From positions 2,714 to 44,905 of the forward strand of contig CAZWEM010000041.1 in NCBI GenBank assembly GCA_964632315.1: a DNA stretch of 42,192 bases, written 5' to 3'. Both the position numbers and the translations under genes were made by a program. This DNA is from an uncultured archaeon. Its GTDB lineage: Archaea > Asgardarchaeota > Lokiarchaeia > Sigyniarchaeales > SOKP01. Position 1 is the first letter of the stretch, and each line of letters begins with the position of its first letter. The notes beneath the pieces were generated by a model. That model did not search any database, was not told the DNA's origin, and saw only the letters and a program-made list of their open reading frames with translations. Shown here in pieces: positions 2,876 through 23,807 of this stretch.

Positions 2876-2977
2876 TAGCCCGGCACGGAATTTCGACTGA
2901 CGAGTATGTTCATCAATTTTCGAACCGTGGTCACGGGGTTCAAGGCCCCAGATGCTTGGCCGCTACACCACCGGGCT
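2876..2977 (-). tRNA. tRNA-Gln (anticodon TTG) with a 29-nt intron in the T-loop (position 59/60); CCA not encoded
   Basis: Reverse complement: AGCCCGG TG GTGTAGCGGCCAAGCAT C TGGGG CCTTGAA CCCCG TGAC CACGG TTCGAA[intron]T CCGTG CCGGGCT A. It has a 7-bp acceptor stem with A1-U72, typical of archaeal tRNA-Gln, and is 73 nt after splicing. Confidence 0.92.
2890..2918 (-). other. BHB intron of tRNA-Gln, 29 nt
   Basis: Outer helix CACGG/CCGTG, central helix TTCG/CGAA, bulges AAA and ATT, inner helix ATTGATGA/TCGTCAGT. Cutting after the 2nd nt of each bulge regenerates the T-loop TTCGAAT. Confidence 0.92.
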
Positions 2978-2999
2978 AAATATTCTCTTATTAAGTCTT

Positions 3000-3623
3000 T
3001 TAAAGATTAAAAGGTTTTAAATTTTGTTGAAAAAATTCTGGATCACATAAATTTTTATGGTTTTTAAGAAAATCTAAATCATTATCCTTGTTTCTATATT
3101 CATCTGGGAGCATTTGAGGAATGGTATCAATGATCGGAAACCATCTATAACAATGTTCACAAAATAACAATCCTGTTTCGATTTCAACGTCCAATTTGAT
3201 TTTATTTATAAAATATAACTCTGGAAGTATATCATCTAAATCAGGAATCTCTTCTTTTTCTGAGAATTTTATAATTTTCTCTTTAACTTCTGAAGTAAGT
3301 AAGTCAAAACATTTAGAACTAAGTGAAAGATCAGATTTATCATAGATATTATCTAATTCATCGATACTTTGAATGATAAGAGTTAAATAATCTTCTAAAG
3401 GAGTATTTTTTAGGGCAATTCCATCTTTTATTAAATCACCATCAGGAGTTTCGTCGATTTCTATAATGCGTTCCCTCTTAATTTGATCAATATCTCTATC
3501 GTTATATATTCTTAAGAATGATTCGAATTGTACAAGAGGAGTTTCGTATTTAAAGATGTATAATTTTAGGGGGTAACTTTTATCTATTGGGCATGCAAGG
3601 ATGTCAAATAACCAAGGTTTCAT
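3000..3623 (-). CDS. trm112: Trm112-family methyltransferase activator with a long central insertion
   Basis: MKPWLFDILACPIDK N-terminus and EIETGLLFCEHCYRWFPIIDTIPQML C-terminal half of the Trm112 Zn-binding domain. Confidence 0.8.
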   Translation of the reverse strand: MKPWLFDILACPIDKSYPLKLYIFKYETPLVQFESFLRIYNDRDIDQIKRERIIEIDETPDGDLIKDGIALKNTPLEDYLTLIIQSIDELDNIYDKSDLSLSSKCFDLLTSEVKEKIIKFSEKEEIPDLDDILPELYFINKIKLDVEIETGLLFCEHCYRWFPIIDTIPQMLPDEYRNKDNDLDFLKNHKNLCDPEFFQQNLKPFNL

Positions 3624-3645
3624 ATTAATCTCGATTAAATAAGAA

Positions 3646-5502
3646 TTATAATAAATAATTCCTTAATTGTTGGATATATTTATCTATGGTTCGATCTATT
3701 TTCTTTCTCCTCTTGAGAAAATCATCAGACAATTTTTGATAAGCTTGTCTAGAGGGTAATTTTCCTCTTTTGTATCGATTATTTAATAGATTAATGCTAT
3801 CATCTACACTAATTCGTTCAGCGTCAAGGACATCTAATTTTTTTACAATACTTTCGAAAATCTCTCCGGATTCAATTAAGTTCTTCTTAAATGGTTGAAT
3901 TTCACTTTTGATTTGTTCGATTTTATTGGTATTTTTACTAACTAGGTTTTTAAAAGATTTTTTAGCCAACTTTTTTCTTCTTGCTTCTTCCTCAGCTGTT
4001 CTCATCTCTAATATCAAAGCATTTTTCTCTTCATATAAGGAACAGAATTCACGAATTTCATTTATGGGTATTAATTCTGATTTTAAAGCGATAACTGTTT
4101 CCTCTTTCTTTCTCGTCTTTATTAATAAGACAAAACTTGATAAGATACCCATAATAAGCAGGATGATAATTATTGGTCTAAACATCAAATCAATTAAGTT
4201 TATTGAAAATGTTACAAGGATTTCTTTACTCTCAAGAGGACTGACTTGTTCGGAATTATAGATAAGGATCTTTGATTCACTATCTTGATTAATGGCGTCT
4301 GGAGGGATTGATATATAATCAATATTACTACATCCTTCTAAAACCAATTTAACTTCTTGTTGTACACCTAAAAATTCAAATTTAGTTGATATTAAATCTA
4401 ATTTTATCGATTCTTCAAACCAATTTACTGAAAAAAGATTCTGTATGGGAATATTATACTGAATAGTGTAAGATAATTTAGAATCTGGCTTAATTGCCGC
4501 TCTATTGTTTAACAAATTAATAGACACTTCTTTAAAATTAGTAGAGGATTCACCTATGCTCACACCTAATAATTCACCAAGTTCGTCAAATACAACTAAA
4601 TTTATAGCATTTTGAGGAATTTTAAAACTAAGAGAATAAAGATCAATCTTACCAATATTATGGATTAAATGCTCTTCTTCTACTTTAATAATTCCCCAAG
4701 GGGATATATCTATCTCACGTTTTATATCTTCTAATTGCATGTTTGTACGAGTATTATCTTCAATACTTACGGTAATTTCCTTTTCTACTCCCATATTTTC
4801 AAGAAATGGATCTAAATAATTTAACTCAAATGAAACACCTAAATCATAAATTATAACTCCAGATTCTGATGTTCCCATCCCAAATGGTTGATCATAACTT
4901 AAAGTATTTGCACCATCAGGTAATCTTATTGCGGTTTTAATATTTCCTTCAGCTTTATAGGGTAAAATTGGGAATATTAATCCTGTAAAATTAATGATTT
5001 GTTCAAGATTTTGAACATTATACTCCAATTGATTCTTTAGCGTCTCAATAATATTTACTGAAATTGAATTTTGTGGTAAAAGTGGACTATCTAAATATAT
5101 ACTAATAACCTCAAAATCATCAAAAATTAAATAGTTTCTTTCTATTGTTAACTCATTTTGTCTTATTCCTTCTGATTTTAAATAAATTAAATCATCTGAA
5201 AGATTTAAAGGAATGCCTAGCAGTATAGAATTTAAGGGATTAGAATTTTGATTGAGAATAGTGATTCTATCTGAAATATCAATTAGTCCATAGGTGCTAA
5301 TATTAATATTTCGAATGATTTCAGTCACTTTTATTTTATCGAAACCTTCGATTGTTGTTGACGATTTGACATCATTTGTATTACCTTTAATGATCTGATC
5401 TTGACGACATAAAAATCCAAAAATTGAAAAGACCATTAATAAGATGATTAAACTTGATAAAATTATACTTATTTTCTTTTTTCTTAACATTTGCATAATC
5501 AA
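3646..5502 (-). CDS. Ribophorin I / Ost1-like oligosaccharyltransferase subunit
   Basis: N-terminal signal/TM, two beta-rich repeats (IRNINISTYGLIDISDRITILN; KREIDISPWGIIKVEEEHLIHNIG, resembling the ribophorin I R.IE.SHWG motif), a single TM and a cytoplasmic coiled-coil tail. Confidence 0.75.
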   Translation of the reverse strand: MIMQMLRKKKISIILSSLIILLMVFSIFGFLCRQDQIIKGNTNDVKSSTTIEGFDKIKVTEIIRNINISTYGLIDISDRITILNQNSNPLNSILLGIPLNLSDDLIYLKSEGIRQNELTIERNYLIFDDFEVISIYLDSPLLPQNSISVNIIETLKNQLEYNVQNLEQIINFTGLIFPILPYKAEGNIKTAIRLPDGANTLSYDQPFGMGTSESGVIIYDLGVSFELNYLDPFLENMGVEKEITVSIEDNTRTNMQLEDIKREIDISPWGIIKVEEEHLIHNIGKIDLYSLSFKIPQNAINLVVFDELGELLGVSIGESSTNFKEVSINLLNNRAAIKPDSKLSYTIQYNIPIQNLFSVNWFEESIKLDLISTKFEFLGVQQEVKLVLEGCSNIDYISIPPDAINQDSESKILIYNSEQVSPLESKEILVTFSINLIDLMFRPIIIILLIMGILSSFVLLIKTRKKEETVIALKSELIPINEIREFCSLYEEKNALILEMRTAEEEARRKKLAKKSFKNLVSKNTNKIEQIKSEIQPFKKNLIESGEIFESIVKKLDVLDAERISVDDSINLLNNRYKRGKLPSRQAYQKLSDDFLKRRKKIDRTIDKYIQQLRNYLL

Positions 5503-5636
5503 TTCTTCCTTAGATTATCTGAAGATAATTAAGATTAATAATAAAATTTTTCATATTTTTTTCTATATATCAAAATAAAACTTATTATTGGTGGAAATTT
5601 ATTTTTAATTAAAAATATTATACTTCAGAATAGATT

Positions 5637-5852
5637 ATGTCGTCACGATCTCAATCCAGAAGGAGAAAAAGAAGAGCTGGAAATGCCCCAATGCCCATGG
5701 GTGGTGCGGGTTTAATGCGCTTTTTTGAAGATAGCTCAATCGGGGTTAAAATTGGCCCAGTTACTACTGTGATAATTTCATTTAGTCTTATTTTAGTGGT
5801 CATTTTCGCAAAGCTTGGAATTTTCAATTGGTTTTTCACCCCCGGAGGATAA
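5637..5852 (+). CDS. Preprotein translocase subunit Sec61beta
   Basis: Basic N-terminus, GAGLMRFFED...VKIGP followed by a C-terminal TM; 71 aa. Confidence 0.9.
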   Translation: MSSRSQSRRRKRRAGNAPMPMGGAGLMRFFEDSSIGVKIGPVTTVIISFSLILVVIFAKLGIFNWFFTPGG

Positions 5853-5880
5853 TTTGATTGTAATTTTTTAAAAAAGGCTT

Positions 5881-6183
5881 ATGAGAATTTCAGATTTTCA
5901 AGAGAAAATTCGTTATTTATATTTAGAAAATGACAAAAGAAGGGGCATTAAAAGCACTTTCATTTGGCTAGTTGAAGAAGTAGGAGAATTAGCGACTCTG
6001 TTGAATAATGAAACTCTTGAAATTCCAAAAATATCAGAGGAATTATCAGATATAATTGCTTGGACATTATCCATAGCAAATTTGCTAAACATTGAAATGG
6101 AGTCTGCTTTAAGCTTAAAATATCCTAATAAGTGTGTTAAATGTGGTGCAGCTCCATGCCAATGCAATAATAAACCTAAATAA
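5881..6183 (+). CDS. MazG-like nucleotide pyrophosphohydrolase
   Basis: WLVEEVGELA...EELSDIIAW motif; C-terminal CxxC...CxC. Confidence 0.85.
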   Translation: MRISDFQEKIRYLYLENDKRRGIKSTFIWLVEEVGELATLLNNETLEIPKISEELSDIIAWTLSIANLLNIEMESALSLKYPNKCVKCGAAPCQCNNKPK

Positions 6184-6201
6184 TTTAAAAGTGAAATTTT
6201 A

Positions 6202-6927
6202 ATGAATTATATACATCCTGAAGCAAAACTTAATAATAATGCTCATATTAGTGATTTAGTGTCTATTGGAAAAGGGGTAACGATTGAAAAGGATGTTTTC
6301 ATCTCGAGGGGGGTAATTATTTATGGAAATGCCTTAATTGAAGAAGGGACATTCATAGGTGAAAATTGTATTATCGGACATCCCCAAAGAAATGAATTAA
6401 AAAAACTAATCAAGAAAAAAGATTCTGCTTTAAATTTGAGAAATCCCTTGGTTGAGATCAAGCAGAATTGTACTATTAGATCTGGAAGCATTATATATTC
6501 AGAAGTAAAGATGGGAGCTAATTGTCAGACGGGTCATCACGTAATGATTAGAGAAAAAACGACCATAGGAAATAATACTTTGGTAGGAACTAATACTGTA
6601 ATTGATGGAAATGTGATTATTGGAGAAAATGTAAGCATTCAAACGGGGGTTTACATACCATTGTATTCTAAGATTGGAAATCATGTATTTATGGGACCCT
6701 TCTGTAAATTAACTAATGATAAATATATGATGCGCAAAAAATTTGATTTGATCGGACCAACTTTGGAGGATTACGTGTCAGTTGGTGCAAATTCTGTCAT
6801 TCTTCCAGGAATTAAATTGAAAAAGAACTCTATAATAGGGGCTGGATCGGTAGTAACGAAAGATGCAGAAGAAAATCAAGTTTTAATAGGAAATCCAGCT
6901 AAACCCATCAAAAGATTTTTAGAATAA
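6202..6927 (+). CDS. Hexapeptide-repeat (left-handed beta-helix) acyltransferase, probably a nucleotide-sugar N-acetyltransferase
   Basis: Many [IV]GxxxxIG repeats, GPFCKLTNDKY, IGAGSVVTKD...GNPAK. Confidence 0.85.
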   Translation: MNYIHPEAKLNNNAHISDLVSIGKGVTIEKDVFISRGVIIYGNALIEEGTFIGENCIIGHPQRNELKKLIKKKDSALNLRNPLVEIKQNCTIRSGSIIYSEVKMGANCQTGHHVMIREKTTIGNNTLVGTNTVIDGNVIIGENVSIQTGVYIPLYSKIGNHVFMGPFCKLTNDKYMMRKKFDLIGPTLEDYVSVGANSVILPGIKLKKNSIIGAGSVVTKDAEENQVLIGNPAKPIKRFLE

Positions 6928-6953
6928 ATTAAAATTAATGAATTGTTCTTTGT

Positions 6954-8054
6954 ATGGGAGTCAAAAGAAGAATTTGGATTGATATTGAGGAACCCAAAAC
7001 AGGAATTATGTTTAAATCTCTTATTGAAAGATTCTATCAAAATAATTATGAAATTCTTCTGACTGCCAGAGATTATGATTCTACTTTTCAGATTTTAGAC
7101 GAATTTGGATTTGAATATTATAAGGTGGGTCATCATGGTGGAGAAAGCTTGGAAGGTAAATTAAAATGCTATATTGAACGATTAAGTGATCTATTTCAAC
7201 AAGTAGTAAAATTTAATCCCGATTATTTTGTCACATTCTCTTCTGTTGAGGGAGCAAGGATCTCTTATGGATTAAAAATTCCTTCAATAGGCTATAATGA
7301 TGAACCACGTAATGTGCCTGTTTGTAAGTTGATCTTTCCTTTTTTGGATAAAATAATTATTCCTCAATGTGTTCCAAAAGAGTGGTATTTAAAACTTCAT
7401 GCTGATCCAGAAAAACTGATTTCTTATAATGGAATCGATGAAATTGCATGGTTAAGCAAATACAATCCAAATCCTAAAATCCTTGATCAATTTGATTTAA
7501 AGAAAGGAGAGTATGTACTTTTAAGGACTGAACCTTCTTTTGCGAGCTACTTCATTGATAAATTAGACCCCTCTCATAGTATAATTAATAAATTCTTACC
7601 AGATCTTATTAAAGAGTTTCCAAACTTCAAGTATATAATAATTGCAAGAACAGAAAAGCAGGAATTATATTTCAAGCAAAAACTTAAGGAATATAAAAAT
7701 AAAAACATCATTCTGACAAGATTCATGCCAAATATGGTTGATCTATGCTTTTATGCTTCCATAGTTATAAGTGGGGGGGGAACGATAGTTCGAGAAGCAA
7801 GTCTTTTAGGAGTACCTAGTATCGAATTTTTTCCAGGTCAAACCGCTCCGCAAGAACATTTCCTAATGGAAAATGGTTTCCCCTTAGAACATGTTAAAGA
7901 GAAAGAAAAAATATTAGAAGAATCTTTAAAGATTTTAAAAAGGGGTCCTTCTTCAGATCGATTCAGCCTTTCATTCAAAGAGAAAATAAAATTATATGAT
8001 GATCCAAATAATATTTGCTTCAAGATTGTCAATGGAGAATTATTAGATTTTTAA
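6954..8054 (+). CDS. DUF354-family GT-B-fold protein (putative glycosyltransferase/epimerase)
   Basis: IWIDI..PK, LLTARDY, VGHHGG and SGGGTIVREASLLGVPSI motifs. Confidence 0.75.
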   Translation: MGVKRRIWIDIEEPKTGIMFKSLIERFYQNNYEILLTARDYDSTFQILDEFGFEYYKVGHHGGESLEGKLKCYIERLSDLFQQVVKFNPDYFVTFSSVEGARISYGLKIPSIGYNDEPRNVPVCKLIFPFLDKIIIPQCVPKEWYLKLHADPEKLISYNGIDEIAWLSKYNPNPKILDQFDLKKGEYVLLRTEPSFASYFIDKLDPSHSIINKFLPDLIKEFPNFKYIIIARTEKQELYFKQKLKEYKNKNIILTRFMPNMVDLCFYASIVISGGGTIVREASLLGVPSIEFFPGQTAPQEHFLMENGFPLEHVKEKEKILEESLKILKRGPSSDRFSLSFKEKIKLYDDPNNICFKIVNGELLDF

Positions 8055-9152
8055 AATTTTTTTATATATTTCTTCCATTTTATGACCAACACTATTCCAA
8101 GAAAATCTTTTAATATATTCTTGACCTTTTTCAATTAGCTTAATCTTTTCATTCTCATTTTTTAATAGCCTATAAATAGCTTCAGAAAGTAATTTTGGAC
8201 TTTTTGGTTTAACAAAAATAGCATTATCTTGCAGAACTTCTCTAAAAACTTTAATATTAGAACATATTACAGGTGTTCCGCATGCTATTGCTTCTATAGG
8301 TGTCAACCCAAAGCCTTCAGATGCATAAGAATAAGTAATAAAAACATCTGCCATAGTATAATAAATTGCTATTTGATTTGTTGGAATAAAACCCATAAAA
8401 TGAATATCTGGATATCTATTTTTCCACACCTGATATGTATCTCTCATCGAAAAATCAGGAGTCCCACCTATCAAGAGTTCTAAGTCTTTTATTTGGTTTT
8501 TTACCATATTATATGCTTTGATGATGTCTGGGACACCTTTATAATTAGCAATACGCCCAATATAAAGCAAAATTGGCCCATTGAGCCCTAATTTCCCTTT
8601 TAAACTTTTTGATTCTGAGACATAAGGCTTAAATTTTGATTCAATAGCCGAGTAAAGATTGAAAATCTTCTGTGAGGGAACATTTTGAAATAGAGATAAT
8701 ATTTGCTGCTTAATAGATTCTGAACAAGTGGTGATAATTTTAGCCCTTTTTATTGTTTTTTCAATTAAGAATCTTTCAAACGGAATTCTTGAAAATTTGG
8801 TTTCAATTGGTCCTAGATCATGTATTGTTGAAATAAAATCTAAATTCCTCAATAAAAGTAAAGGCATGCTCCCCTTCGGTCCGTTGCCATGAATTATGTC
8901 GAACTTATTTTTTTTCAAATATTTAATTACAAAAAATATAAATTGGGGAACCCAAAGATAACTCTTTTTTATCAATTTCACTTGGATAATATCTGGATTG
9001 TTAAGTTTTTGATTCCAAAGCCCTGTTATTACTTTAACTTCATGGCCCTGTGATTTAAGGTAATTATAAACTCCTGTTATAAATTTTGCACTTCCATCTT
9101 GACTATCCGGAGCAAATGTTAATGAAACCAAACAAATCTTTAACTTTTTCAT
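8043..9152 (-). CDS. Glycosyltransferase family 4 (GT-B, retaining)
   Basis: LYIGRIANYKG and EGFGLTPIEAIACGTPVICS motifs. Confidence 0.9.
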   Translation of the reverse strand: MKKLKICLVSLTFAPDSQDGSAKFITGVYNYLKSQGHEVKVITGLWNQKLNNPDIIQVKLIKKSYLWVPQFIFFVIKYLKKNKFDIIHGNGPKGSMPLLLLRNLDFISTIHDLGPIETKFSRIPFERFLIEKTIKRAKIITTCSESIKQQILSLFQNVPSQKIFNLYSAIESKFKPYVSESKSLKGKLGLNGPILLYIGRIANYKGVPDIIKAYNMVKNQIKDLELLIGGTPDFSMRDTYQVWKNRYPDIHFMGFIPTNQIAIYYTMADVFITYSYASEGFGLTPIEAIACGTPVICSNIKVFREVLQDNAIFVKPKSPKLLSEAIYRLLKNENEKIKLIEKGQEYIKRFSWNSVGHKMEEIYKKILKI

Positions 9153-9176
9153 GTATTACTCAAATTTTTTAAGAAT

Positions 9177-10139
9177 TCAGGTTAGTTGTTCAAATCCGTT
9201 TTCAGTGATCATAATAGTTTCTTCAGATTGGGATACATTTGCACCTTTTTGTTCAGATAATACATAATGAACCTTTAATTTACCTTGCTGAATCAATTCT
9301 TGAAGTCCAAACGCAACTCCAATCCTAAACTCTTTAGCCAACCATCTTTCTGCAAACGGTAAAGTTTTATAATTTTTATTGATATGTCCTAATATTTGTT
9401 TGGATGTTTTTCTTCTTAGTGGTACCCTTCCGGCATAGGGATTAACTTCATAAATATAAGAGGAATTTGTATTATGAATTGTTCCTTCACCAGTTGAAGC
9501 AAAAATCTCTACTGCAAATACATCACCTTCTTGCATTGTATCCCCTCCTTGAGATCCTAATTCAGGAAGTTGTTTTTTACCATGTACGGTCCATCTTTCG
9601 ATTTGATGACCTCCTAACTCTTTAATGGGATTATAACCAAAGCCTTTCACAATACTTTCAATTTTTTTCCCAATTACCCTTGTATTTACTTCAGGTTTAG
9701 CCATATTTTTTGCTGCTTCTAGTGCAACTTCCGTAGCTTGGATAATATTTTCTAATAAAGGATCATCGCTAAAACTTACAGAAAAAGCAGTGTCTACTAT
9801 GAAACCATCAATGTGAACCCCTAAATCCACTTTCACAATGTCTCCTTCATTAATTGTTAAACCGTCGTCTTTAATAGGAGAGGTATAGTGAGCAGCGATG
9901 TTATTTATGCTAACATTAACTGGAAATGCCCAATGTCCCTCTAATTCAATGATTTTTGATTCAGCAGCTTCAATCAATCTTGAGACATTGGTTCCAATTT
10001 TTATTTTTGGTTTTAGGAATTTTTTTACTTCATTGGCAATATTTCCCGCTTGTTTCAATGATGTTATCTCTAATTCTTTGTCTTCGTCCGTTTTTTCTGT
10101 GTTCTTATCTTTTAATTTTTGATTCTCATTCATTGACAT
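9177..10139 (-). CDS. map: Methionine aminopeptidase type II
   Basis: AFPVNVSINNIAAHYT, KVDLGVHIDGFIVDTA, LGGHQI, FAVEIFAS, and the type-II helical insert (TLPFAERWL). Confidence 0.95.
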   Translation of the reverse strand: MSMNENQKLKDKNTEKTDEDKELEITSLKQAGNIANEVKKFLKPKIKIGTNVSRLIEAAESKIIELEGHWAFPVNVSINNIAAHYTSPIKDDGLTINEGDIVKVDLGVHIDGFIVDTAFSVSFSDDPLLENIIQATEVALEAAKNMAKPEVNTRVIGKKIESIVKGFGYNPIKELGGHQIERWTVHGKKQLPELGSQGGDTMQEGDVFAVEIFASTGEGTIHNTNSSYIYEVNPYAGRVPLRRKTSKQILGHINKNYKTLPFAERWLAKEFRIGVAFGLQELIQQGKLKVHYVLSEQKGANVSQSEETIMITENGFEQLT

Positions 10140-10330
10140 ATTAAATGTTAAAATTGATAAAAATATTTTTTAAAAAAGCAATATCAAAATAAATAGTTAA
10201 AAAATATATAAAAAAAAGATTAATAAATAAATAAGAGAAAGTTTACTAGATCATATAATTTAATTATCAATTACTCATTTAAGATGTATGATTTCATCTT
10301 ATGAGATAACATATTCTGTTCTAAAAAATT

Positions 10331-10336
10331 AGGAGG
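10331..10336 (+). promoter_or_regulatory. Shine-Dalgarno site (AGGAGG) of the roadblock gene
   Basis: AGGAGG 9 nt upstream of the TTG start at 10346. Confidence 0.7.
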
Positions 10337-10345
10337 AATTTAATA

Positions 10346-10717
10346 TTGTCCGAAAACATCAGCGAACTCACCGATTTACTAAGAAAATTGTCTGCTGTAA
10401 ACTCTGATATAGAAGGTTCTGCAATTGTTAGTGTTCAAGGATTACCTATTTGTTCGGTTTTAAGTCGAGATGTGAATGATGGAATCGTTTCTGCTATGTC
10501 CGCAGCTATTCAAAGCGTTTCTGAACGTGCAGTAGAAGAATTAGATCGAGGGGAATTAAAACGTATTCTTATTGAAGGCGTTAACGGGATAATTATTCTT
10601 TCCAGAGCAGGTGATAACGCAATACTATGTACTCTATGCAATGCGAATGCAAGTTTAGGAATGGTCTTTCTTAATATTCAAAGTGTTTCTAACAGAATTG
10701 CGGCATTATTAGATTAA
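10346..10717 (+). CDS. Roadblock/LC7 (MglB-like) domain protein
   Basis: DIEGSAIVSVQGLPICS, SAMSAAI, ELDRGELKRILIEG..G, ASLGMVFL; TTG start with a strong SD. Confidence 0.9.
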   Translation: MSENISELTDLLRKLSAVNSDIEGSAIVSVQGLPICSVLSRDVNDGIVSAMSAAIQSVSERAVEELDRGELKRILIEGVNGIIILSRAGDNAILCTLCNANASLGMVFLNIQSVSNRIAALLD

Positions 10718-10752
10718 TCTGTTTTCTTATCGTCTTTAAATTTAGAAAAAAA

Positions 10753-12042
10753 TTGTATTTTGATATGGTTCTCAACCAGAATTTTGAATCAATATTAGAA
10801 AATATTCAAACAGGAAAATCGAGTAAAGAGAAAGAAGATTTATACTATAATAACATTTCTCGGTTTTTAAATGAAGGAAATCTGGAACTTGTTAAACAGT
10901 TATTTAATGGGTCAGTTCAATTAGATATTCACGTAATTCCTTCAAAGATCCCAAATTTAGTTGAAATTTTATCTAACCTCCTAATAAATTGTATCCATGA
11001 TCTAAACTTTGGCCAGATATTTCTAATTTTAAGATTTTGTAATGAACATGATTTACTAGCAAAAAACTTGAACCTGAAAGAATCCCGGTTAATTCGAAGT
11101 TGTTACGAAGATGAAATACTGATGAAAAACCTAATGGATCTATTTGGAAACATAACACCATACTTTTTAAGGTATATTAGAATAGAAATGCCAAAAAATT
11201 TGTATAAGTACTATAAGGAAAGCCCTTACTTCGTTTCGGAAGATGAAGACGGAATTGGTGTCATAAAGAATTTCTTAGACAGATACGTAATGTACGGCTT
11301 AAGTGTGCAAAATTTAGGTGGTGTTCGCAATTTTTTTAGAAGAGTTCAGGATCGTTATTCAAATTCTAATTCCAGATTTGAGAAATTCATATTTCATAAT
11401 AAGACTCATTTAATATGTCCAGAAGTATTGCTTGAAATGAAAGAGAAAATTTTATCTAAAAAATACAACTTTTTCAATCTTTCTATGATAATATCTCACG
11501 GTATAGGTCCCCAAGGATTGGGATTTACTTATTCAACACCTAAAGGGGAAATTATAGAGATTTGTTCAGATCGAAAAGAAAATGCAGCCATTATCATCAA
11601 ATTTAAACAATTTTTAAATACAAAATTTATTAAAGAATTAAAATCTGAATTAGCTAAGTATTCGGTGAATGAGAACATAATCCAGAAAATTTCTAAGCAT
11701 CTCACCAATATTCTTACTGATGATAAGTTAGTGAGTTATTTTATAAAGGACGAACTTTTTTCAGAAATCAAGAAATTTTTCACTCTATCGGGTATTCAAT
11801 CGGATGATTTTAGCGCAATCTGGAATAAAGTAGACTCTTCTCTTTCTAATGTCTTAAGACCCATAGAAATTGTTGATCAATTCAAAACACGAATGAATTT
11901 AGTTGCTAAAAAAAAATTGAGGTTACAAGACGTTCCAAAATTGACCAGTTTAAGAGAAAAATCACATTACGATATTCTAAGAGAACGTTTATTTTTTCAA
12001 TATATAACTGAATGGTTTTATGAAACGTATTTTGAAAAATAA
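10753..12042 (+). CDS. Hypothetical protein
   Basis: 429-aa ORF filling the gap between genes; conserved-looking core HGIGPQGLGFTYSTPKGEIIEICSD; no family recognised. Confidence 0.7.
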   Translation: MYFDMVLNQNFESILENIQTGKSSKEKEDLYYNNISRFLNEGNLELVKQLFNGSVQLDIHVIPSKIPNLVEILSNLLINCIHDLNFGQIFLILRFCNEHDLLAKNLNLKESRLIRSCYEDEILMKNLMDLFGNITPYFLRYIRIEMPKNLYKYYKESPYFVSEDEDGIGVIKNFLDRYVMYGLSVQNLGGVRNFFRRVQDRYSNSNSRFEKFIFHNKTHLICPEVLLEMKEKILSKKYNFFNLSMIISHGIGPQGLGFTYSTPKGEIIEICSDRKENAAIIIKFKQFLNTKFIKELKSELAKYSVNENIIQKISKHLTNILTDDKLVSYFIKDELFSEIKKFFTLSGIQSDDFSAIWNKVDSSLSNVLRPIEIVDQFKTRMNLVAKKKLRLQDVPKLTSLREKSHYDILRERLFFQYITEWFYETYFEK

Positions 12043-12057
12043 AAAAATTTGATATAT

Positions 12058-15037: not shown

Positions 15038-15217
15038 AATTATGAAGCCTATTTTTATAAAATTAAGTTAATATTAAATTGGTTAGTCATAATATATAAA
15101 CTAATCATTTAAAAAAGTAAAAATAAGGTAATTTTAAAAGAATCTTACCCAACAAAATAATTATAAATACTTTGAGAAGAATATATTTACATTAGTTATT
15201 ATCAAAGGTGAATAATA

Positions 15218-15940
15218 TTGTTAAGTCTAATTGGTTGGTTAGATGGTATATCTGCTACAGGTGTACTAACTACAAATCTCATTATTGGGATATACTCACT
15301 GTATAAATCAAGGAAATTAAAAGCTAAGCTACTTACTGTAACTTCTTTAACAATATTCTTTATTGGATTGCTTTGGTTAGGTCCAACAACTGATTTTTTA
15401 AAAATCCTCATTACAGGAACAAATATTGAGTCTGTATGGTTTTATCCTGTAAGCGTACCTGTAATATATCCGATTTTGAGCTATATGTGGGCTGCTCCAG
15501 GTATATTTTTTGGAATGTATATTGGAGGAGAATTAATTATGCCTAGGAAAAAATGGTATCTTCTAACTGTTTTTCTTATTATCTGCATTGCATACGAATT
15601 TTTCCTTTTCATAAATCCACAGGGTTCCTTTACATATACTGTTCCTCCTCCTGGTTCAGACATAATTGATACATCTAGTGATTATTCCTACTATACTGCA
15701 TTCTTTTTAATCGGATTTATTTTATCTATCATTTTATTCAATGGTATTGGTTTTTTAGTTAAAGCTTTCAAAGCAACAGGAGTAATAAAGAAGAAGTTTT
15801 TTGCTCTCGCTTTTGGTTTCATCTTATTTGCTATTATTGTAACTTTTGATGCATTAATACCTCCAGGTATTTTTTTATCAATTGTTAGATTTGGAATAAT
15901 ATTGAGTAGCATCCTATTATATATAGGAATTAAAACCTAA
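15218..15940 (+). CDS. Uncharacterised ~7-TM membrane protein
   Basis: About seven hydrophobic segments; AGGTGA SD before the TTG start. Confidence 0.7.
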   Translation: MLSLIGWLDGISATGVLTTNLIIGIYSLYKSRKLKAKLLTVTSLTIFFIGLLWLGPTTDFLKILITGTNIESVWFYPVSVPVIYPILSYMWAAPGIFFGMYIGGELIMPRKKWYLLTVFLIICIAYEFFLFINPQGSFTYTVPPPGSDIIDTSSDYSYYTAFFLIGFILSIILFNGIGFLVKAFKATGVIKKKFFALAFGFILFAIIVTFDALIPPGIFLSIVRFGIILSSILLYIGIKT

Positions 15941-15971
15941 GAAGAATTTTTAAAAAAATATTTTATTTTTA

Positions 15972-17444
15972 TTATATTCTTAACTCTTGAATGTAATCAA
16001 AAATCGTATCAATTCTATTTTTAATTTGCCCAAATAAACCCTCTTCCTCAGATATTACCGAGTTAATTGCGGTTTTTAATCCATAATGACCCTCTGATAC
16101 TAAAACTCTAATAGGCAAGGTTAATATCTCACTTAGTAACATTAACATTTCTTGTATAATTTTGATGATTTTTGGTATCTGTTCCTCTGTTTGATCTCTC
16201 ATTGTTTGATCTGACGATATCAAACCATTCTCCCGTTCCTTCCTTAGCTCTTCCCAGACATTTTCTTTAAGAGAAGCAAAATCTATACCCAAATTTTCTA
16301 ACGCTAATTGAGCTCCTTCGAATAAGAATTCAATATCTTGCTTTCCAGAAAATGCTTTTATGTTTTCAATCATCTCCGAAGGAGCTAATCCTTCAAGAAA
16401 CGCTACTAATAGATTATGATAGTCATTTATAACATCAATGGGGATGAAAAGAAAAGTAAACTCTTTGAATTGCTTAAATAAATATCCTGCAATTTTAGCG
16501 AATGTCTCATTTTCAAATATTTTTTCAACAAATCCTCCGTATTCATTTAAGAGATGTATGAATAGGAATCCAATAATTCTAATCATATCGTCTTCGTAGT
16601 TTTTAAAATAATCGAAGAATCTTTCTGGTTCCATATTAAGTTTTTCCCTAATGAGCTCTGCTGTCTTTTGTTTAACTCCCTCGAGTGGTTCATCTAAAAG
16701 TTCTTCAATTTTATCCAAAGAGAGAATTTCTTGAATTTTTTCAATAAAATCAGATTCTGTTTCGATCTCTACATCTTCATCAACTTCATCAATAACAACA
16801 TTAGAATTCAATTTATCCTGTAATTTTTCGGAAGTTAATTCTCTCCATTCTATCTTATCATAGATCTTACACGTCAATTGTAAGCATTCCTCTCCTCTCG
16901 CCATACACTTTTGCTCTATAATACGAATCCTATATTCATTTTTCTTCACTTTTAAAATATAATTTGCCACACTTTCAAGCATACCAGCTAGTCCACATGC
17001 CAAGCCCTCTGTTTCTTTATTCACGATTTTGTCGAATCCAAATGTATCCATCTCATCATTTCCATAATCAGCACAAATGGGACATCTTTTAATTTTTAAA
17101 AGATAATCATTATACTTCGAATCTTTTTTTTCAATTATTTCATAGCTTAGATCCTCTTCTGAGAGTTCTTTCCCAAATACCACAACCCATAATAATTCAA
17201 AGTATTCAAGAACTTTTTTCGGGTTTCCTGGCATAAATCGAAAAATTGTGGTGTGTCGATCACATGACTCAAAAGTAGCACGTTTTCCTATCTCCCTTAA
17301 AATTAGTAGGGAGTCTTCTTCATTTTCTGTAATCTCATGTATTTCTTTCAAGATTTCACGATAGAGGAGGGTATAGAATAATGAATTGGTGCTCCTTCCA
17401 AAAATTTTAGTTATTTTTTTTAGTAACCATTGGACGGTTCCCAT
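15972..17444 (-). CDS. V4R/Bet3(TRAPP)-like N-terminal domain fused to an acidic helical C-terminal region
   Basis: LREIGKRA, FELLWVVVFGK, IKRCPIC, CGLAGMLESV and EQKCMARGEECLQL fit the V4R pattern. Start moved to ATG 17444, which has GGAGG upstream and follows the upstream stop codon. Confidence 0.65.
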   Translation of the reverse strand: MGTVQWLLKKITKIFGRSTNSLFYTLLYREILKEIHEITENEEDSLLILREIGKRATFESCDRHTTIFRFMPGNPKKVLEYFELLWVVVFGKELSEEDLSYEIIEKKDSKYNDYLLKIKRCPICADYGNDEMDTFGFDKIVNKETEGLACGLAGMLESVANYILKVKKNEYRIRIIEQKCMARGEECLQLTCKIYDKIEWRELTSEKLQDKLNSNVVIDEVDEDVEIETESDFIEKIQEILSLDKIEELLDEPLEGVKQKTAELIREKLNMEPERFFDYFKNYEDDMIRIIGFLFIHLLNEYGGFVEKIFENETFAKIAGYLFKQFKEFTFLFIPIDVINDYHNLLVAFLEGLAPSEMIENIKAFSGKQDIEFLFEGAQLALENLGIDFASLKENVWEELRKERENGLISSDQTMRDQTEEQIPKIIKIIQEMLMLLSEILTLPIRVLVSEGHYGLKTAINSVISEEEGLFGQIKNRIDTIFDYIQELRI

Positions 17445-17445
17445 A

Positions 17446-17943
17446 TTATTTTCCTCCTGTATAAATGTATACATGTCTACAAGAATTATGACCAAAGACT
17501 TTTGATTCATTGATATCTTGCATTTCAATCTTAAATCCATTTTGTCTTGAATTAATTATGTTTATAAATTCAACTACCATACTACCAATTATCTCACAAC
17601 CAGCAACATTTATATCTGAAAAATGGTATTTACATAGCGCACAATCATTATCTTGAATAGATATCCTTTTGTTTACTTCGTCAACTTCAATTGAAATATT
17701 GCTATTTAATACGTTTCTATAAATCGTTGCCAAGACGTCCTTAATATTGGTAAAAGTAACTTTTTCGATTGGCCTCCAAGTATTTAGGTATGTATGAGCA
17801 ATGTTTTTCCCCATTCTTCTAAGTCTACTTCTCACTTCGGTGATGTTGTTCCTTTTCATAAATCGTTGGAGATGATAAATTGCATTTCTCAACTGATTCA
17901 TAGTCGCATTCGTTTGCACCAAATCAGCTCTTGAATAATTCAT
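17446..17943 (-). CDS. Stand-alone V4R/Bet3(TRAPP)-like protein
   Basis: LRRMGKNIA, IQDNDCALC, GCEIIGSMVVEFI, ESKVFGHNSCRHVY. Confidence 0.6.
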   Translation of the reverse strand: MNYSRADLVQTNATMNQLRNAIYHLQRFMKRNNITEVRSRLRRMGKNIAHTYLNTWRPIEKVTFTNIKDVLATIYRNVLNSNISIEVDEVNKRISIQDNDCALCKYHFSDINVAGCEIIGSMVVEFINIINSRQNGFKIEMQDINESKVFGHNSCRHVYIYTGGK

Positions 17944-18219
17944 ATCTTATCCGGCTAGAAAATTGATTAATTATTTTTGATAAATTTTTGAATAATATTA
18001 AAGTTTTTAATCCAATTAATGGATGATAAGTATGAATTTCAAGGTACTTTTAAATTATTATATCAAATTTATACCTTAAACGACTGGTCCAAATAAATTA
18101 TTTAAAATAAAAATTTCTAGAAGATTTTGAATAATTTTTAATAATTGAAACTAATATAAATAAAAAAATATTAATCTCTTCATTAATTTTAAGCAATATA
18201 AGATTTAATGGTAATTTAA

Positions 18220-18576
18220 ATGATAAATATCGAAGAATTAAAAGATTATGGTTTAGAAATAACCGATGAAATGAAGAAGGGAAAGGTCATTATAGATGTA
18301 TATACCACCTGGTGCGGTCCTTGCAAATGGCTTAGTCCAATCCTCGAAAAATTGGAGAAAGAAGGATTATTTAAATTGTTAAAAGTTGATTTAGATCAAA
18401 ATCGCCCGTTAGGAAGTAGATTTGGCATAACAGCAATTCCAACTCTGTTATTTTTTAATGAAGGACATCTTTTAGAAAATACAATTGAAGTTCAGGGACA
18501 ACCATTTGTTCGAAATGGTTTAATGGTGGGAGCTGCTGGAGAGCCTGTTCTCAAAGAGATTGTTTCGAAGATGTAG
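18220..18576 (+). CDS. trxA: Thioredoxin
   Basis: WCGPC active site; FGITAIPTLLFF. Confidence 0.92.
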   Translation: MINIEELKDYGLEITDEMKKGKVIIDVYTTWCGPCKWLSPILEKLEKEGLFKLLKVDLDQNRPLGSRFGITAIPTLLFFNEGHLLENTIEVQGQPFVRNGLMVGAAGEPVLKEIVSKM

Positions 18577-18668
18577 TATTTTTTCTTCTTAATTTATATA
18601 TCTTTATTAAATATCATTGAAAAGAAATAATTTTAAAATTTAATGAAAGTTATATTAATATAATTTTA

Positions 18669-19193
18669 ATGCTAAAGGATAATATACAAATGGCAACAAT
18701 AGATTTTGATTTTAGAAACCAAATTATCCAATCAGATATCGGTAGTACATTAGCTTATTGTTACCAATGTGCTACATGTAGTGGAGCTTGTCCCGTTGCA
18801 CAAGTCACCAATGGGCGTTATAATCCAAGAAGATTAATATTGGATGCCTTACTCGGGTTAAAAGAAAAGATTTTTGGTATAGAAAATTCATTTTCAATAT
18901 GGGGTTGCACTGTTTGTGATACTTGCGATGAAGTTTGCCCACAGAAAGTAGAACTGACAGAAATATTCACCATTTTAAAGAATTTAAGTGTAGAAAAAGG
19001 TGAAGCTCCCGACTATTATACCACCCAAGCATCCACAATTCTCGAAAATGCAAAAGCTATTCCAATGCAACCTGCAATAGAGAGACGTCGGGAACAATTA
19101 GGATTACCCAAGGTATTATCTCCAAATGTAAATGAAGTGAAGAAATTACTAGAGATAACTAAATTACCAGAAAAATTAGTTAAAGAAGAATAG
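18669..19193 (+). CDS. hdrC: Heterodisulfide reductase subunit C-like 2x[4Fe-4S] protein (start may be 18690)
   Basis: CYQCATCSGACP, YNPRRLI, IWGCTVCDTCDEVCP, RREQLGLP. Confidence 0.85.
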   Translation: MLKDNIQMATIDFDFRNQIIQSDIGSTLAYCYQCATCSGACPVAQVTNGRYNPRRLILDALLGLKEKIFGIENSFSIWGCTVCDTCDEVCPQKVELTEIFTILKNLSVEKGEAPDYYTTQASTILENAKAIPMQPAIERRREQLGLPKVLSPNVNEVKKLLEITKLPEKLVKEE

Positions 19194-19264
19194 TTCTTTT
19201 TATTATTCTTTTAAACCGTATCGTACATAAATTGAATACTTATTCTAAATCGGAGTGAAAAATT

Positions 19265-20032
19265 GTGAGAAAACCTATTATTGGAGGGAACTGGAAAATG
19301 CATCTAGGAACTCCTAATGAAGCAATATCTCTTATAAAAAGCCTAAAATCTTTAATAAAAGGGATTAAAAATGTTGATATTGTAATTGCGCCACCTTTCA
19401 CTGTTTTGGAGTCTGTTGTGAGAGAATTAAAGAAAACTGACATAAGCGTTTCAGCTCAAAATATGTATTTTGAGGATAAAGGCGCTTTTACAGGTGAAAT
19501 TTCGCCATTATTTCTAAAAAGTATGGGTGTAAAATATGTTATATTGGGGCATAGTGAAAGGAGGCAGATTTTTGGTGAAACTGATGATCTAATTAATAAA
19601 AAAATTAAAAAAGCCTTAAAGGAAAGTTTAATTCCCATAGTTTGCATTGGAGAGAATTTAAATGCTAGGGAGGCGGGAAAAACAAAAGAGATTATTCGAA
19701 ACCAAATGAATTTTACTTTTCAAGATTTAATTGGTCAAGATATGATCAAAATCATCATCGCATATGAGCCAATATGGGCAATCGGTACTGGAAAAACAGC
19801 TACACCAAAACAAGCTGAGGAAATTCACATCTTTATTCGTGATATTCTAAAGGAAAAATATGGAGAAAATGTTGCTGATGAAATTCGAATACAATATGGG
19901 GGATCTATTAAACCAAATAATGCAAAATCGTTATTTTCAAGAGAGAACATTGATGGAGGATTGGTAGGAGGAGCATCTTTAAACTCAGAATCATTTTATG
20001 AAATTATCGAAGCTGCAGAAAAAAATACGTGA
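19265..20032 (+). CDS. tpiA: Triosephosphate isomerase (bacterial/eukaryal-type length and motifs)
   Basis: GGNWKM, GAFTGEIS, LGHSERR, AYEPIWAIGTG, YGGS, DGGLVGGASL. Confidence 0.97.
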   Translation: MRKPIIGGNWKMHLGTPNEAISLIKSLKSLIKGIKNVDIVIAPPFTVLESVVRELKKTDISVSAQNMYFEDKGAFTGEISPLFLKSMGVKYVILGHSERRQIFGETDDLINKKIKKALKESLIPIVCIGENLNAREAGKTKEIIRNQMNFTFQDLIGQDMIKIIIAYEPIWAIGTGKTATPKQAEEIHIFIRDILKEKYGENVADEIRIQYGGSIKPNNAKSLFSRENIDGGLVGGASLNSESFYEIIEAAEKNT

Positions 20033-20033
20033 T

Positions 20034-20885
20034 TTAACCTAATACTTGATTGAATTGAAGAGTTAATTTTCCTGGAAATTCACCTAAATAGGATTGAGGT
20101 TCTGCAATCAGAAGATAGAAATATGGCTGAAGTAAACCATCTATATTTGGCCCTATTCCCGATTTTATGATATAAACCCAAATTGTCTCATTTCTAATAT
20201 ATGATTGTCGATAAATCCATTCAAGTGGTTTTATTTCAGGAAAAATTCCAATGTTTCTTAATATGATATTTATTTCCTTCATAGTATATTTTTCGCTAAT
20301 TAAAATTAGGGGAGAGAGATCAAAAGAACATATACAAATCGAATTTAAGCCATAATTCTTCATATCATTTAATAATGATTTAGCTAATGTTTCTAGCTTT
20401 TTTTTATTTATATTTATTCTCGATCTTGCTTCAGAATCTATTAGATAATTAATAATTTGGTCTTCTTCATTTTGCAGTACTTCTTGTGCTGTTGCTAACG
20501 GTATTTTATGTTTAATTATGTTGTCATAAATTAACTTTATTTTTTCCGAAATAGATTTATGTAAGAGAAATCCTTCAGTTTGGGCCGTTATTAAAACATC
20601 GCCCTTATATAAAGATTTTTTGCTAACCTCCTCTTTTTTCGAAATAAATTCAAGAATTTCGATCTCTTTATTAATACTTCGAGCAAATTCATATAGCGCA
20701 GACACAAGCCCTGCATCTAAATCAAAACTATCCTTAGAATCTAATTCAATCTCATTTCTCGAATAATACTTCGAAAAATCGAAAAATCTTAGATATAATC
20801 TTACTCCTTTAGGAGGTTTTTGCAATTTTAAATGATAGTAAGGAAATCCAGAATTTGTTATTACTGAAAGTTCATAAATCGTCAT
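20034..20885 (-). CDS. Hypothetical protein, possible longin-like N-terminal domain
   Basis: MTIYELSVITNSGFPYY and AGLVSALYEFARSI resemble the longin beta1-beta2/alpha1 pattern; the fold call is tentative. Confidence 0.5.
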   Translation of the reverse strand: MTIYELSVITNSGFPYYHLKLQKPPKGVRLYLRFFDFSKYYSRNEIELDSKDSFDLDAGLVSALYEFARSINKEIEILEFISKKEEVSKKSLYKGDVLITAQTEGFLLHKSISEKIKLIYDNIIKHKIPLATAQEVLQNEEDQIINYLIDSEARSRININKKKLETLAKSLLNDMKNYGLNSICICSFDLSPLILISEKYTMKEINIILRNIGIFPEIKPLEWIYRQSYIRNETIWVYIIKSGIGPNIDGLLQPYFYLLIAEPQSYLGEFPGKLTLQFNQVLG

Positions 20886-20996
20886 AGAATCTTTTTATAG
20901 CTAAAACGCTTTTTTAATACTTTTTTAATTAATGATTTTAATACTCCTATTTAAATTAATTTGGTTTAAAAATAGAAAATTAAATATCGATATCAC

Positions 20997-23807
20997 TTAT
21001 TTAATAATTATTGTTGGTCTTCCCGGTAGAGATTTAAGAGCCTTTGGATCTTTTGAATCGATTTCTTTTAATACATTTACATTAGCATCGTATTTTGTCT
21101 CTAACATGCTAGAGATTTCATTAAAAAATAAGAATTCTTCACTTGCTTTGATTGGAGAGGGCTGAAATTTACCTAGATTTTTAAGTACGGAGGACACAAT
21201 TTGATTTATAAGTTTACCATGTTTTTTAAAATGCTCTTTTTTCATAAGAACCTTTAATATTTCACCTTGATCCTTGGATTGTTTAACTTGTTGGAGCAGC
21301 TCTTCGAAAAGATTAAATTTCCAATCATTAGCTATGATTATATCGATCTTGTCGATTTTTTCTTTTTTAATTATATGAATTATGTGGTTTATCGATTCCA
21401 ATGTATCATTCATTAGTTTCCATTTATATTCATTAACGGGATTTAAAATACCATTATCATATTCTGGCCAAGAAGATACACTTAAAAAATCTTCATTGCC
21501 AAACAAGTTCCAAATTTCTTCAGTTACGTGTGGAATAAATGGATGTAATAGTTTAACAAGTCTTTGAGAACAGTAAGAATAGACACTTTTATTAACTTTT
21601 TCAAGTTTATATTTATTAAATTCATTTGTAAATTGGATTAAATCATTAATGGCATCCCTTATATCAATTTGTTCCATATGCTTTGTCACATTCTTAATAG
21701 TTTTGTTTAGAAGATATTTGATCAAAGTATCATGAATAACTTCATTATTTCTAATAGAATCTGGTTTCTCAATCAAAAGTGCAAAACTATTCCGAATAAA
21801 TTTATGCGCAAATTGAATACCTTCATTTGACCATTCTAACCCCGATTTTGGACTAGCCCCAAATAGAATGAAAAATCTAGCTGCATCAGCACCAAATTTA
21901 TTCATTATTCCAATCGGATCTACTGTATTTCCTAAACTTTTGCTCATTTTAACACTTTTGAATATGTATTTTGTTCCACATCTTTTACAATTTTCATCAT
22001 TCATCTCGGATTTCATTGCAAATACTTCGCAATTAGGACAATACGGATGTATTTTATTAATCATTCCTTGGGTAAGTAATCTTTGAAATGGCTCACTGTT
22101 TGAATGTAATCCTAAATCTCTTGCAACTTTGGTAAAAAATCTTGCGTATAGCAAATGAAGAATAGCATGTTCAATGCCTCCAATATAGAGATCAACATTC
22201 ATCCAATAATCTACTCTTTTCTTGGAATATGGAAGATTTGATGATTTAGGATCACAATATCTATAGAAATACCATGAACTATCAACAAATGTATCCATTG
22301 TATCTGTTTCTCTTATTGCTTTTTTATTGCATTTAGGGCACTTTACATTAAGAAAAGATTCACTAGTCAATAATGGATTTCCTTTACCAGTGAATTGAAC
22401 ATCTTTTGGTAGCTTTATTGGGAGCTGATCGATGGGAGCGGGAATAACACCACAATCCTCGCAATATATAATTGGAATAGGACATCCCCAGTATCTCTGC
22501 CTTGAAATTAACCAATCTCTTAACTTATAATTAACAGTCGCATACCCACTGTTTAATTCTTCAAGTTTTTTAGTGATTGCATTTATCGCGCTTTTGTTAT
22601 CAATACCATCGAATTCTCCAGAATTGACTAAAATTCCCTCTCCCTCAAACGCACGTGACATCTTTTTGGAATCTAATTCATAATCATAAGGTTGGATTAC
22701 GACTCTTATTGGAATATCATATTTTTTGGCAAATTCAAAATCTCGTTGGTCATGTCCTGGAACGGCCATTACTGCTCCGGCACCATATTCATATACAACA
22801 AAATTCCCAACATAAATAGGGATTTGTTGCTTTGTCATTGGATTTAATGCTTTTTTCCCGATAAGCATCCCTTTCTTTTTCACCTCTATATCTGTGCGTT
22901 CAAACTTATCCTGCTGCATAACCTCTTTATAAAATTTTTTGTATTTTTCCTCATAATCTGTTTTTTCCACCCATTCTTTTATCCATGGGTGCTCAGGGGC
23001 AAAAACCATAAATGTTACTCCATATAAAGTATCAGGTCTAGTAGTAAAAATATCAATCGTTCGTTCTTCTCCAACAATTTGAAATTTAATGATAGTCCCT
23101 TGTGATCTCCCAATCCAATTCCGTTGCATAGTTTTTACTTTTTCTGGCCAATCTAACTGATCTAAACCCTCTAATAATTCTTCCGCGTAATCTCTTATTT
23201 TTAAAAACCATTGCGTCAGGAATTTTTGTTCTACATTGCTGTTGCATCTCCAACATTTTCCATTTAAGACTTGCTCATTAGCTAAAACTGTAGAGCAATT
23301 GGGACACCAATTTACATAAGATTCTTGTCTATAAGCTAAACCCTTCTCAAACATCTTAATAAAGAACCATTGGTCCCATTTATAGTAGTTAGGATCGTGA
23401 CTAAATATAGTCCGAGTCCAATCGTAAGACAAACCAATTCTTTTTTGTTGCTTTTTCATTAACTCGATATTTGAATTTGTCCATTCCTCGGGATTAGCGC
23501 CGTGATCAATCGCCGCATTCTCAGCAGGGAGTCCAAAACTTTTATGGTATTTCACTTATTGAGAAATACTATCATAGCCCATAGGGTACAATACATTGAA
23601 CCCCTGCATTCGTTTGAATCGAGCTACAGAATCTCCTATTGTATAATTACGGAGATGTCCCATATGAAGGCTTCCAGAGGGATAAGGGTACATTTCTAAT
23701 ACGTAATATTTATTTTTGTTTTTATCTTGTTTTACTTCAAAAATTTTCTCGCTGTCCCATTTGTCTTGCCATTTTTTTTCTATCTTTCCAAAATTATAAT
23801 CTTCCAC
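20997..23807 (-). CDS. leuS: Leucyl-tRNA synthetase, interrupted by a 30-nt putative BHB intron (exon 1 23807-23571, exon 2 23540-20997; 926 aa spliced)
   Basis: GTG start at 23807, [12 protein letters not shown] (HIGH), PMGYDS|[10 protein letters not shown] joined across the insert, FTTRPDT and [15 protein letters not shown] editing domain, [16 protein letters not shown]. Confidence 0.95.
23541..23570 (-). other. Putative bulge-helix-bulge mRNA intron in leuS, 30 nt, containing an in-frame TAA
   Basis: GGGC TATG AT^A GTATTTC TCAATAAGT GAAATAC CATA AA^A GTTT: 4-bp central helix, two 3-nt bulges, 7-bp inner stem. Confidence 0.85.

Follow-up and report, generated by a model that had tools for sequence, protein, structure and literature searches.

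A stretch of 42,192 nucleotides from an uncultured archaeon of the Lokiarchaeia (order Sigyniarchaeales), hereafter called the window, carries two short inserts: one of 29 nt in a tRNA-Gln(UUG) gene and one of 30 nt in a bacterial-type leuS gene, encoding leucyl-tRNA synthetase (LeuRS). We explain both as bulge-helix-bulge (BHB) introns that are removed from RNA, the leuS intron being one of a population of introns of about 30 nt and a tolerated passenger rather than a regulator of LeuRS; to this explanation we give a probability of roughly four in five. Very probably the leuS insert is a BHB intron spliced from mRNA, with several others of its kind in the genome, and the lineage very probably splices mRNAs with its tRNA machinery. 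The window corresponds to C41:2714-44905 of the host assembly (G000; 4.45 Mb, 119 contigs, 31% G+C), whose nearest database records are metagenome-assembled genomes (MAGs) of Promethearchaeota (Loki-type Asgard). The features of the two genes, in window coordinates, are as follows.

2876..2977, minus strand: tRNA-Gln(UUG) gene with intron, 102 nt, 73 nt when spliced (ARAGORN)
2890..2918, minus strand: BHB intron of 29 nt in the T-loop, position 59/60 (intron-less orthologues, covariation)
23571..23807, minus strand: exon 1 of bacterial-type leuS, with a probable GTG start and the end ...PMGYD (TIGR00396 profile 1-72)
23541..23570, minus strand: leuS BHB intron of 30 nt, its hairpin loop containing an in-frame TAA (conserved site, 8 congeners)
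23536..23580, minus strand: complete hBHBh' motif of leuS, read from the sequence
20997..23540, minus strand: leuS exon 2, 847 codons and stop (TIGR00396 profile 77-779, 856 bits)

Structure and splice junctions of the two inserts

A sequence-only reading of the window had proposed two BHB micro-introns of 29 and 30 nt that are alike in layout and without common primary sequence. Our reading of the motifs, together with exact junctions in intron-less relatives, bears out the introns and their shared layout, and no common sequence was found between them.

Unspliced, the tRNA-Gln gene receives no call in the window from either ARAGORN or Rfam; once the 29 nt (2890-2918, minus strand) are deleted, ARAGORN calls a tRNA-Gln(UUG) with a normal cloverleaf. 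The precursor can be read as an hBHBh' motif, in the order T-stem CACGG, central helix (H4) TTCG, bulge AA|A, a hairpin of 8 bp with a 6-nt loop, H4' CGAA, bulge AT|T and CCGTG. Orthologues are present in all 24 genomes of the genus that were searched. In seven congeners the gene has no intron and reads CACGGTTCGAATCCGTG, which is the predicted spliced sequence; the junction there, TTCGAA|TCCGTG, is an exact match, and only a cut after the second nucleotide of each bulge reproduces it. Among 16 intron-bearing orthologues, the hairpin shows compensatory (two-sided) changes at five of its eight pairs while the exons are invariant, and pairing reaches 97.7% of the cells of the motif, compared with 27-46% after sliding of the partners (16 species). 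Judged by sequence, the insert is an authentic and, for this lineage, ordinary non-canonical BHB tRNA intron.

The leuS insert interrupts a conserved motif of the catalytic core, PMGYD|SFGLPAEN, and the sequences on its two sides match adjacent segments of one bacterial-type LeuRS profile (NCBIfam TIGR00396; positions 1-72 and 77-779). Its layout is GGGC / TATG / AT|A / GTATTTC-TCAATAAGT-GAAATAC / CATA / AA|A / GTTT, with the TAA included in a loop of 9 nt. In hBHBh' terms, this gives a weak, G-U rich outer helix (GGGC/GUUU), the H4 helix UAUG/CAUA, two 3-nt bulges and an inner helix of 7 bp. In a survey of the genus, in which 42 genomes were searched and bacterial-type leuS was found in 37, eight genes carry an insert at the identical site (G000, G005, G006, G009, G023, G050, G056 and G057). 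When each bulge is cut after its second base, all eight genes regain YDSF, the reading of the intron-less relatives. The motif is again almost fully paired (99.2% of cells, against 40-55% with the partners slid; 8 species), and the Tyr codon that forms part of H4 is TAT in every intron-bearing gene, while the intron-less relatives have TAT or TAC.

We propose that, in the transcripts, four nucleotides of the upstream exon would pair with four nucleotides near the 3' end of the insert. This central helix would be flanked by the stacked hairpin of 7-8 bp and, at its opposite end, by a helix between the exons, with two 3-nt bulges on opposite strands. A heteromeric EndA would cleave both bulges 3' of their second base, and the exons would be joined by RtcB, yielding a normal T-loop in tRNA-Gln and an uninterrupted bacterial-type LeuRS. 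Introns of this kind, about 30 nt long, would sit in tRNA genes and several protein genes of the genus and would be gained and lost between close species; they may persist because the tRNA-splicing machinery removes them, and they look like tolerated passengers.

The tRNA-Gln gene shows a second peculiarity. Its anticodon loop, CCUUGAA (window position about 2944, minus strand), has C at position 33, where the near-universal base is U. C33 is kept in every tRNA-Gln(UUG) orthologue of the genus that was read, G018 excepted, and is also present in the single tRNA-Gln(CUG) read (G012); tRNA-Gln has U33 in G018 and in two genomes of other families (G031, G027). The 26 tRNAs called by ARAGORN in G000, none of which is a tRNA-Gln, have T at this position. 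The C33 of tRNA-Gln is possibly edited or tolerated. The gene is adjoined by genes for a homologue of ribophorin I, a subunit of the eukaryote-type oligosaccharyltransferase, and for a Trm112-like protein (window 3646-5502 and 3000-3623, respectively; minus strand).

Translation, distribution and history of leuS

A stop codon lies in the loop of seven of the eight leuS inserts. The insert of G057 has no stop, and that of G056 is 29 nt long and shifts the frame. These sequences bear on the possibility that the mRNA keeps the insert, which would be dealt with during translation, whether by read-through of a 10-residue insertion, by bypassing of the T4 gene 60 type, or by production of two polypeptides that assemble. 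Insert lengths divisible by three in seven of eight copies, the open insert of G057, and a GTG after the stop in G000, G023 and G009 all speak for such handling. However, the frameshift in G056 does not fit it, the insert lies within an invariant catalytic-core motif, and a restart after the stop is not conserved, since the following codon varies among GTG, GGG and GAG, being GGG or GAG in four copies. As for bypassing, matching take-off and landing codons (AGT/AGT) exist only in G000; six copies have TGT/AGC and G057 has AGT/AGC. We therefore hold any such translational handling to be extremely improbable.

Another view would be that the bacterial-type leuS is a decaying pseudogene, redundant with an archaeal-type LeuRS, and that the insert is a lesion. 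The second LeuRS exists, and the in-frame stop recurs in seven of eight copies, as this view would have it. Yet one and the same single lesion recurs in eight species, with precisely the shape of a BHB motif, and, BHB inserts aside, the genes contain no additional stop or frameshift. In exon 2 we found no further stop and no 10-residue insert relative to congeners. The ratio of nonsynonymous to synonymous substitution rates (dN/dS) between the intron-bearing genes of G023 and G006 is about 0.03 in exon 1 and 0.11 in exon 2; such strong purifying selection implies that both exons are translated, in the frames that the splice would join. Furthermore, each of the 41 genomes searched in the order retains the bacterial-type gene. 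Decay of the gene thus appears very unlikely, and we return to a spliced intron as the preferred reading of the insert.

Elsewhere in the genus, and in those members of other families of the order that were read, the site is continuous, with PMGYDSFGLPAE or a close variant. On the LeuRS tree, genes with the intron occupy three well-supported positions, and at least three changes by gain or loss are needed. The intron sequences themselves are clearly homologous, so that the scattered pattern indicates precise losses, recombinational exchange, or both. One pair of genomes shows a discordance of its own: exon 2 of leuS is identical in G005 and G050 over 1183 nt, yet eight mismatches fall within the 45 nt just before the intron. 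Either recombination with a joint at the intron or a chimeric MAG may account for this; an additional leuS fragment, without intron, lies on C30 of G005. Two congeners, G009 and G057, have a further BHB insert of 30 nt in leuS. It lies some 165 nt downstream of the first intron, at YYK|WDQWFF, and contains one TAG stop in G057 and two in G009; it is absent from G000.

Bacterial-type and archaeal-type LeuRS are both present across the order. The archaeal-type enzyme of G000 is intact (C37:1420-4314, 964 aa; TIGR00395, 931 bits). Outside the phylum, the nearest relatives of the bacterial-type enzyme are found in DPANN and Clostridia, with 52-59% identity. The bacterial-type leuS was probably acquired by transfer and the intron gained afterwards.

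Further inserts in tRNA and protein genes

The sequence-only reading had also raised the possibility of a genome-wide system of micro-introns, to be sought with a motif descriptor. A strict scan, which demanded a complete H4 of four pairs with a stem no shorter than 5-6 bp and was combined with an open reading frame (ORF)-fusion criterion, gave no excess in G000 either over random positions (898 versus 773) or over the mirror-image motif (53 versus 44). This lack of enrichment implies that canonical introns that break ORFs between long exons are few. The strict scan misses real introns, many of which have three H4 pairs, lie in frame without stops, or separate short exons; mRNA introns cannot be counted in bulk by ORF logic, because those that are in frame and free of stops escape it. 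When the requirement was relaxed to three H4 pairs, ORF-fusing hits numbered 61 against 39 for the mirror control and, at a length of exactly 30 nt, 12 against 2. Individual hits of the descriptor search are real, although its strict form shows no enrichment.

ARAGORN, run on the whole of G000, finds only 12 tRNA genes without intron and 14 more with an anticodon-loop intron. Such a low yield agrees with a recent preprint (bioRxiv 10.64898/2026.10.13.758758) that describes Asgard tRNA genes as heavily interrupted, most of them carrying introns. Eleven tRNA genes were rescued by removal of one or two canonical BHB hits, and none by the mirror control. Their introns measure 25-33 nt, mostly 28-30 nt. 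The near-equal sizes of the two inserts of the window follow from a common size class, made of one nucleotide, a hairpin of about 23 nt, then four and two nucleotides.

Four protein genes of G000 other than leuS also contain BHB inserts:

C25:29359-29388, minus strand: insert of 30 nt in a gene for aEF-2, with an in-frame TAA (GTP_EFTU profile 3-37 before it, 49-187 after it)
C18:19083-19112: insert of 30 nt in the TBP gene, with a 9-bp hairpin and a 3-bp H4, splitting the second repeat
C12:88274-88303: insert of 30 nt in a uvrA-like gene, at FSFNEPSG|MCLNCKGRG, confirmed by profile coordinates
C25:3-1663, continuing on C79, minus strand: about six inserts in acs (acetyl-CoA synthetase)

The aEF-2 insert lies in one of two paralogues and was seen only in G000, G015 and G016 among 41 genomes searched; intron-less congeners read MTDSD|DEEQ, exactly as predicted for the splice. 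Splicing of the TBP insert would restore IQNI|VASGDL; a 24-nt solution tried for this gene was replaced by the 30-nt register. Of the acs inserts, four measure exactly 30 nt, one 32 nt and one about 48 nt. The majority preserve the reading frame and lack stops; in the output of a gene caller they would become 10-residue insertions in the protein. The proposal of genome-wide micro-introns therefore holds in kind, for aEF-2, TBP, the uvrA-like gene, acs, at least 11 tRNA genes and, in two congeners, the second leuS site. A lack of other BHB insertions in protein genes, which would have spoken against the proposal, is thus not what we observe. The accompanying notion that the hosts are translation components is true of tRNA-Gln and leuS and fails as a rule, given TBP, the uvrA-like gene and acs. 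As to how such introns arrive, for which reverse ligation and retro-integration had been suggested, the same preprint found no general route for Asgard tRNA introns (bioRxiv 10.64898/2026.10.13.758758).

At each resolved site, the four bases that follow the hairpin can pair with the adjoining upstream exon, at all four positions or at three of them (for example CATA/TATG, CGAA/TTCG and CTGA/TCAG). This local complementarity argues for selection on the BHB motif and against a transposed element. It speaks against viewing the hairpins as palindromic mobile elements at the DNA level, similar to miniature inverted-repeat transposable elements (MITEs) or Rickettsia palindromic elements (RPEs), with no RNA processing: a transposed element would not provide a match to its new neighbourhood. 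Such elements do come to mind in view of the short hairpin shape, the frequent in-frame and stop-free inserts (acs) and the patchy occurrence among species. However, the copies have no common sequence, the copy in the tRNA must be removed for the tRNA to function, and the leuS copies contain stops and a frameshift. We give this explanation hardly any credence.

The range of hosts also bears on regulation. The sequence-only reading had suggested that splicing capacity couples LeuRS synthesis to tRNA maturation, LeuRS output being tied to EndA and RtcB in the way that IRE1 and RtcB act on HAC1/XBP1. In its favour, tRNAs and the leuS mRNA would be processed by one machinery, leuS mRNA that had not been spliced would be silenced by the in-frame stop of the loop, and a second translation gene, that for aEF-2, also contains such an intron. 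Nevertheless, the coupling found no support. With its intron in 8 of 37 genomes, scattered on the gene tree through at least three changes, leuS does not look subject to a conserved regulatory role; a second, intact LeuRS of archaeal type is present; TBP (transcription), the uvrA-like gene (repair) and acs (metabolism) are hosts as well; and no sensor or condition-dependent element was seen. We consider regulated splicing of leuS unlikely, and the tolerated passenger remains our preferred description of its intron.

Several other candidates were set aside or left as observations. The boundaries in TldD/PmbA (C10) and thiolase (C1) and the start of an epimerase (C27) were rejected as false positives. 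A candidate on C32 has an AIRS_C match in exon 2 and none in exon 1. A coding score based on codon usage was dropped for poor discrimination, exon 1 of leuS itself falling below the threshold. An ORF for an M42 peptidase (C9:10508-11003) covers only profile positions 172-292, behind a BHB-like hit of 22 nt; its upstream part was not located, and the gene is probably interrupted more than once. The uvrA-like protein, for its part, seems to be without profile positions of about 142-276, the UvrB-binding region.

Splicing machinery, significance and known systems

G000 encodes two EndA paralogues (PF01974; on C28 and C8, both above cut-off) and one RtcB (C26, 568 bits). The C28 protein (207 aa) has its best match in the catalytic subunit of Aeropyrum pernix EndA (3P1Z_B, E 8e-34) and keeps Tyr, His and Lys, which we take to be the catalytic triad. 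In the C8 protein (205 aa), aligned to Methanocaldococcus jannaschii EndA, the His is replaced by Ser. Alignment of the C28 protein to the A. pernix alpha subunit is gapless from residue 33. Asgard EndA is described as an (alpha-beta)2 enzyme in which an L1 loop confers broad specificity (PMC5829648). Typing of EndA, as the sequence-only reading had advised, thus yields one catalytic-like paralogue and one without the His, a pair whose sequences fit the broad-specificity (alpha-beta)2 type.

A few points weigh against splicing of these inserts. In this AT-rich genome, canonical BHB motifs are in total no commoner than the mirror-image control. Changes within the leuS motif are all one-sided (G-U), with no compensatory pair among eight species. 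In the minimum free energy (MFE) fold of a 62-nt leuS fragment the hairpin appears, whereas the central helix of 4 bp does not (z = -1.5); for a motif that protein stabilises this is to be expected, and the result neither supports nor refutes the motif. An intact archaeal-type LeuRS means that the interrupted leuS need not be essential. Finally, we infer cleavage and ligation of both introns from the DNA.

With these points in mind, we find it rather probable that Loki-type Asgard archaea keep a turning-over population of BHB introns of about 30 nt, which invade tRNA genes and protein genes (some of them several times), including genes acquired from bacteria. In such a lineage, mRNA splicing would be routine, and many introns, being in frame and stop-free, would be invisible to gene callers. 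If this is true, the tRNA endonuclease and RtcB routinely splice mRNA in the closest prokaryotic relatives of eukaryotes. In our own checks, one Asgard genus shows BHB introns in at least five protein genes, of uniform size and of the same architecture as its tRNA introns, with gain and loss between species. Should RNA data confirm it, Asgard archaea would have split protein genes and an obligatory, non-spliceosomal splicing of mRNA, which bears on the tolerance of introns before eukaryotes; translation coupled to transcription would have to cope with unspliced messages; and gene callers would mis-annotate such genomes, with truncated ORFs, false pseudogenes and spurious insertions of 10 residues.

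A comparable process is known from eukaryotes. As with HAC1/XBP1, where IRE1 and RtcB act, a small mRNA intron would be removed without spliceosome by an endonuclease and RtcB, changing the frame or the product. IRE1, however, is a stress-activated kinase-RNase that recognises twin stem-loops and not BHB motifs, and no IRE1-like sensor or regulation is shown for the Asgard inserts. Among archaea, Sugahara is said to have described non-canonical tRNA introns of Thermoproteales in 2007/2008. The tRNA-Gln intron is an ordinary member of the non-canonical tRNA introns of Thermoproteales and Asgard archaea, with its hBHBh' motif in the T-arm, and nothing essential sets it apart.

The preprint on Asgard tRNA introns (bioRxiv 10.64898/2026.10.13.758758) does not treat protein genes. 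In Haloferax volcanii, the HVO_1309 mRNA is likewise a substrate of the archaeal splicing endonuclease; there, however, the site lies in the 5' untranslated region (UTR) and not in coding sequence, the case is single, and the organism has an EndA of alpha'2 type (PMC7714728). Besides this 5' UTR, the only BHB intron reported in an archaeal mRNA is that of cbf5 (PMC7714728, 2020), and, among the papers that we could search, none describes BHB introns in protein genes of Asgard archaea, or in any archaeal coding sequence other than cbf5. The intron in the pre-mRNA of cbf5, a pseudouridine synthase of Crenarchaeota (Watanabe 2002; Yoshinari 2006; Yokobori 2009, PMC2738675), is the closest precedent: it is a tRNA-type BHB intron in a coding sequence, in a lineage with heteromeric EndA, and its gain and loss are patchy among relatives. 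The inserts described here differ in occurring in Promethearchaeota (Asgard), in several host genes, with several introns per gene and a uniform size of about 30 nt. They differ also in that one host, leuS, is of bacterial type, so that its intron was probably gained after the transfer.

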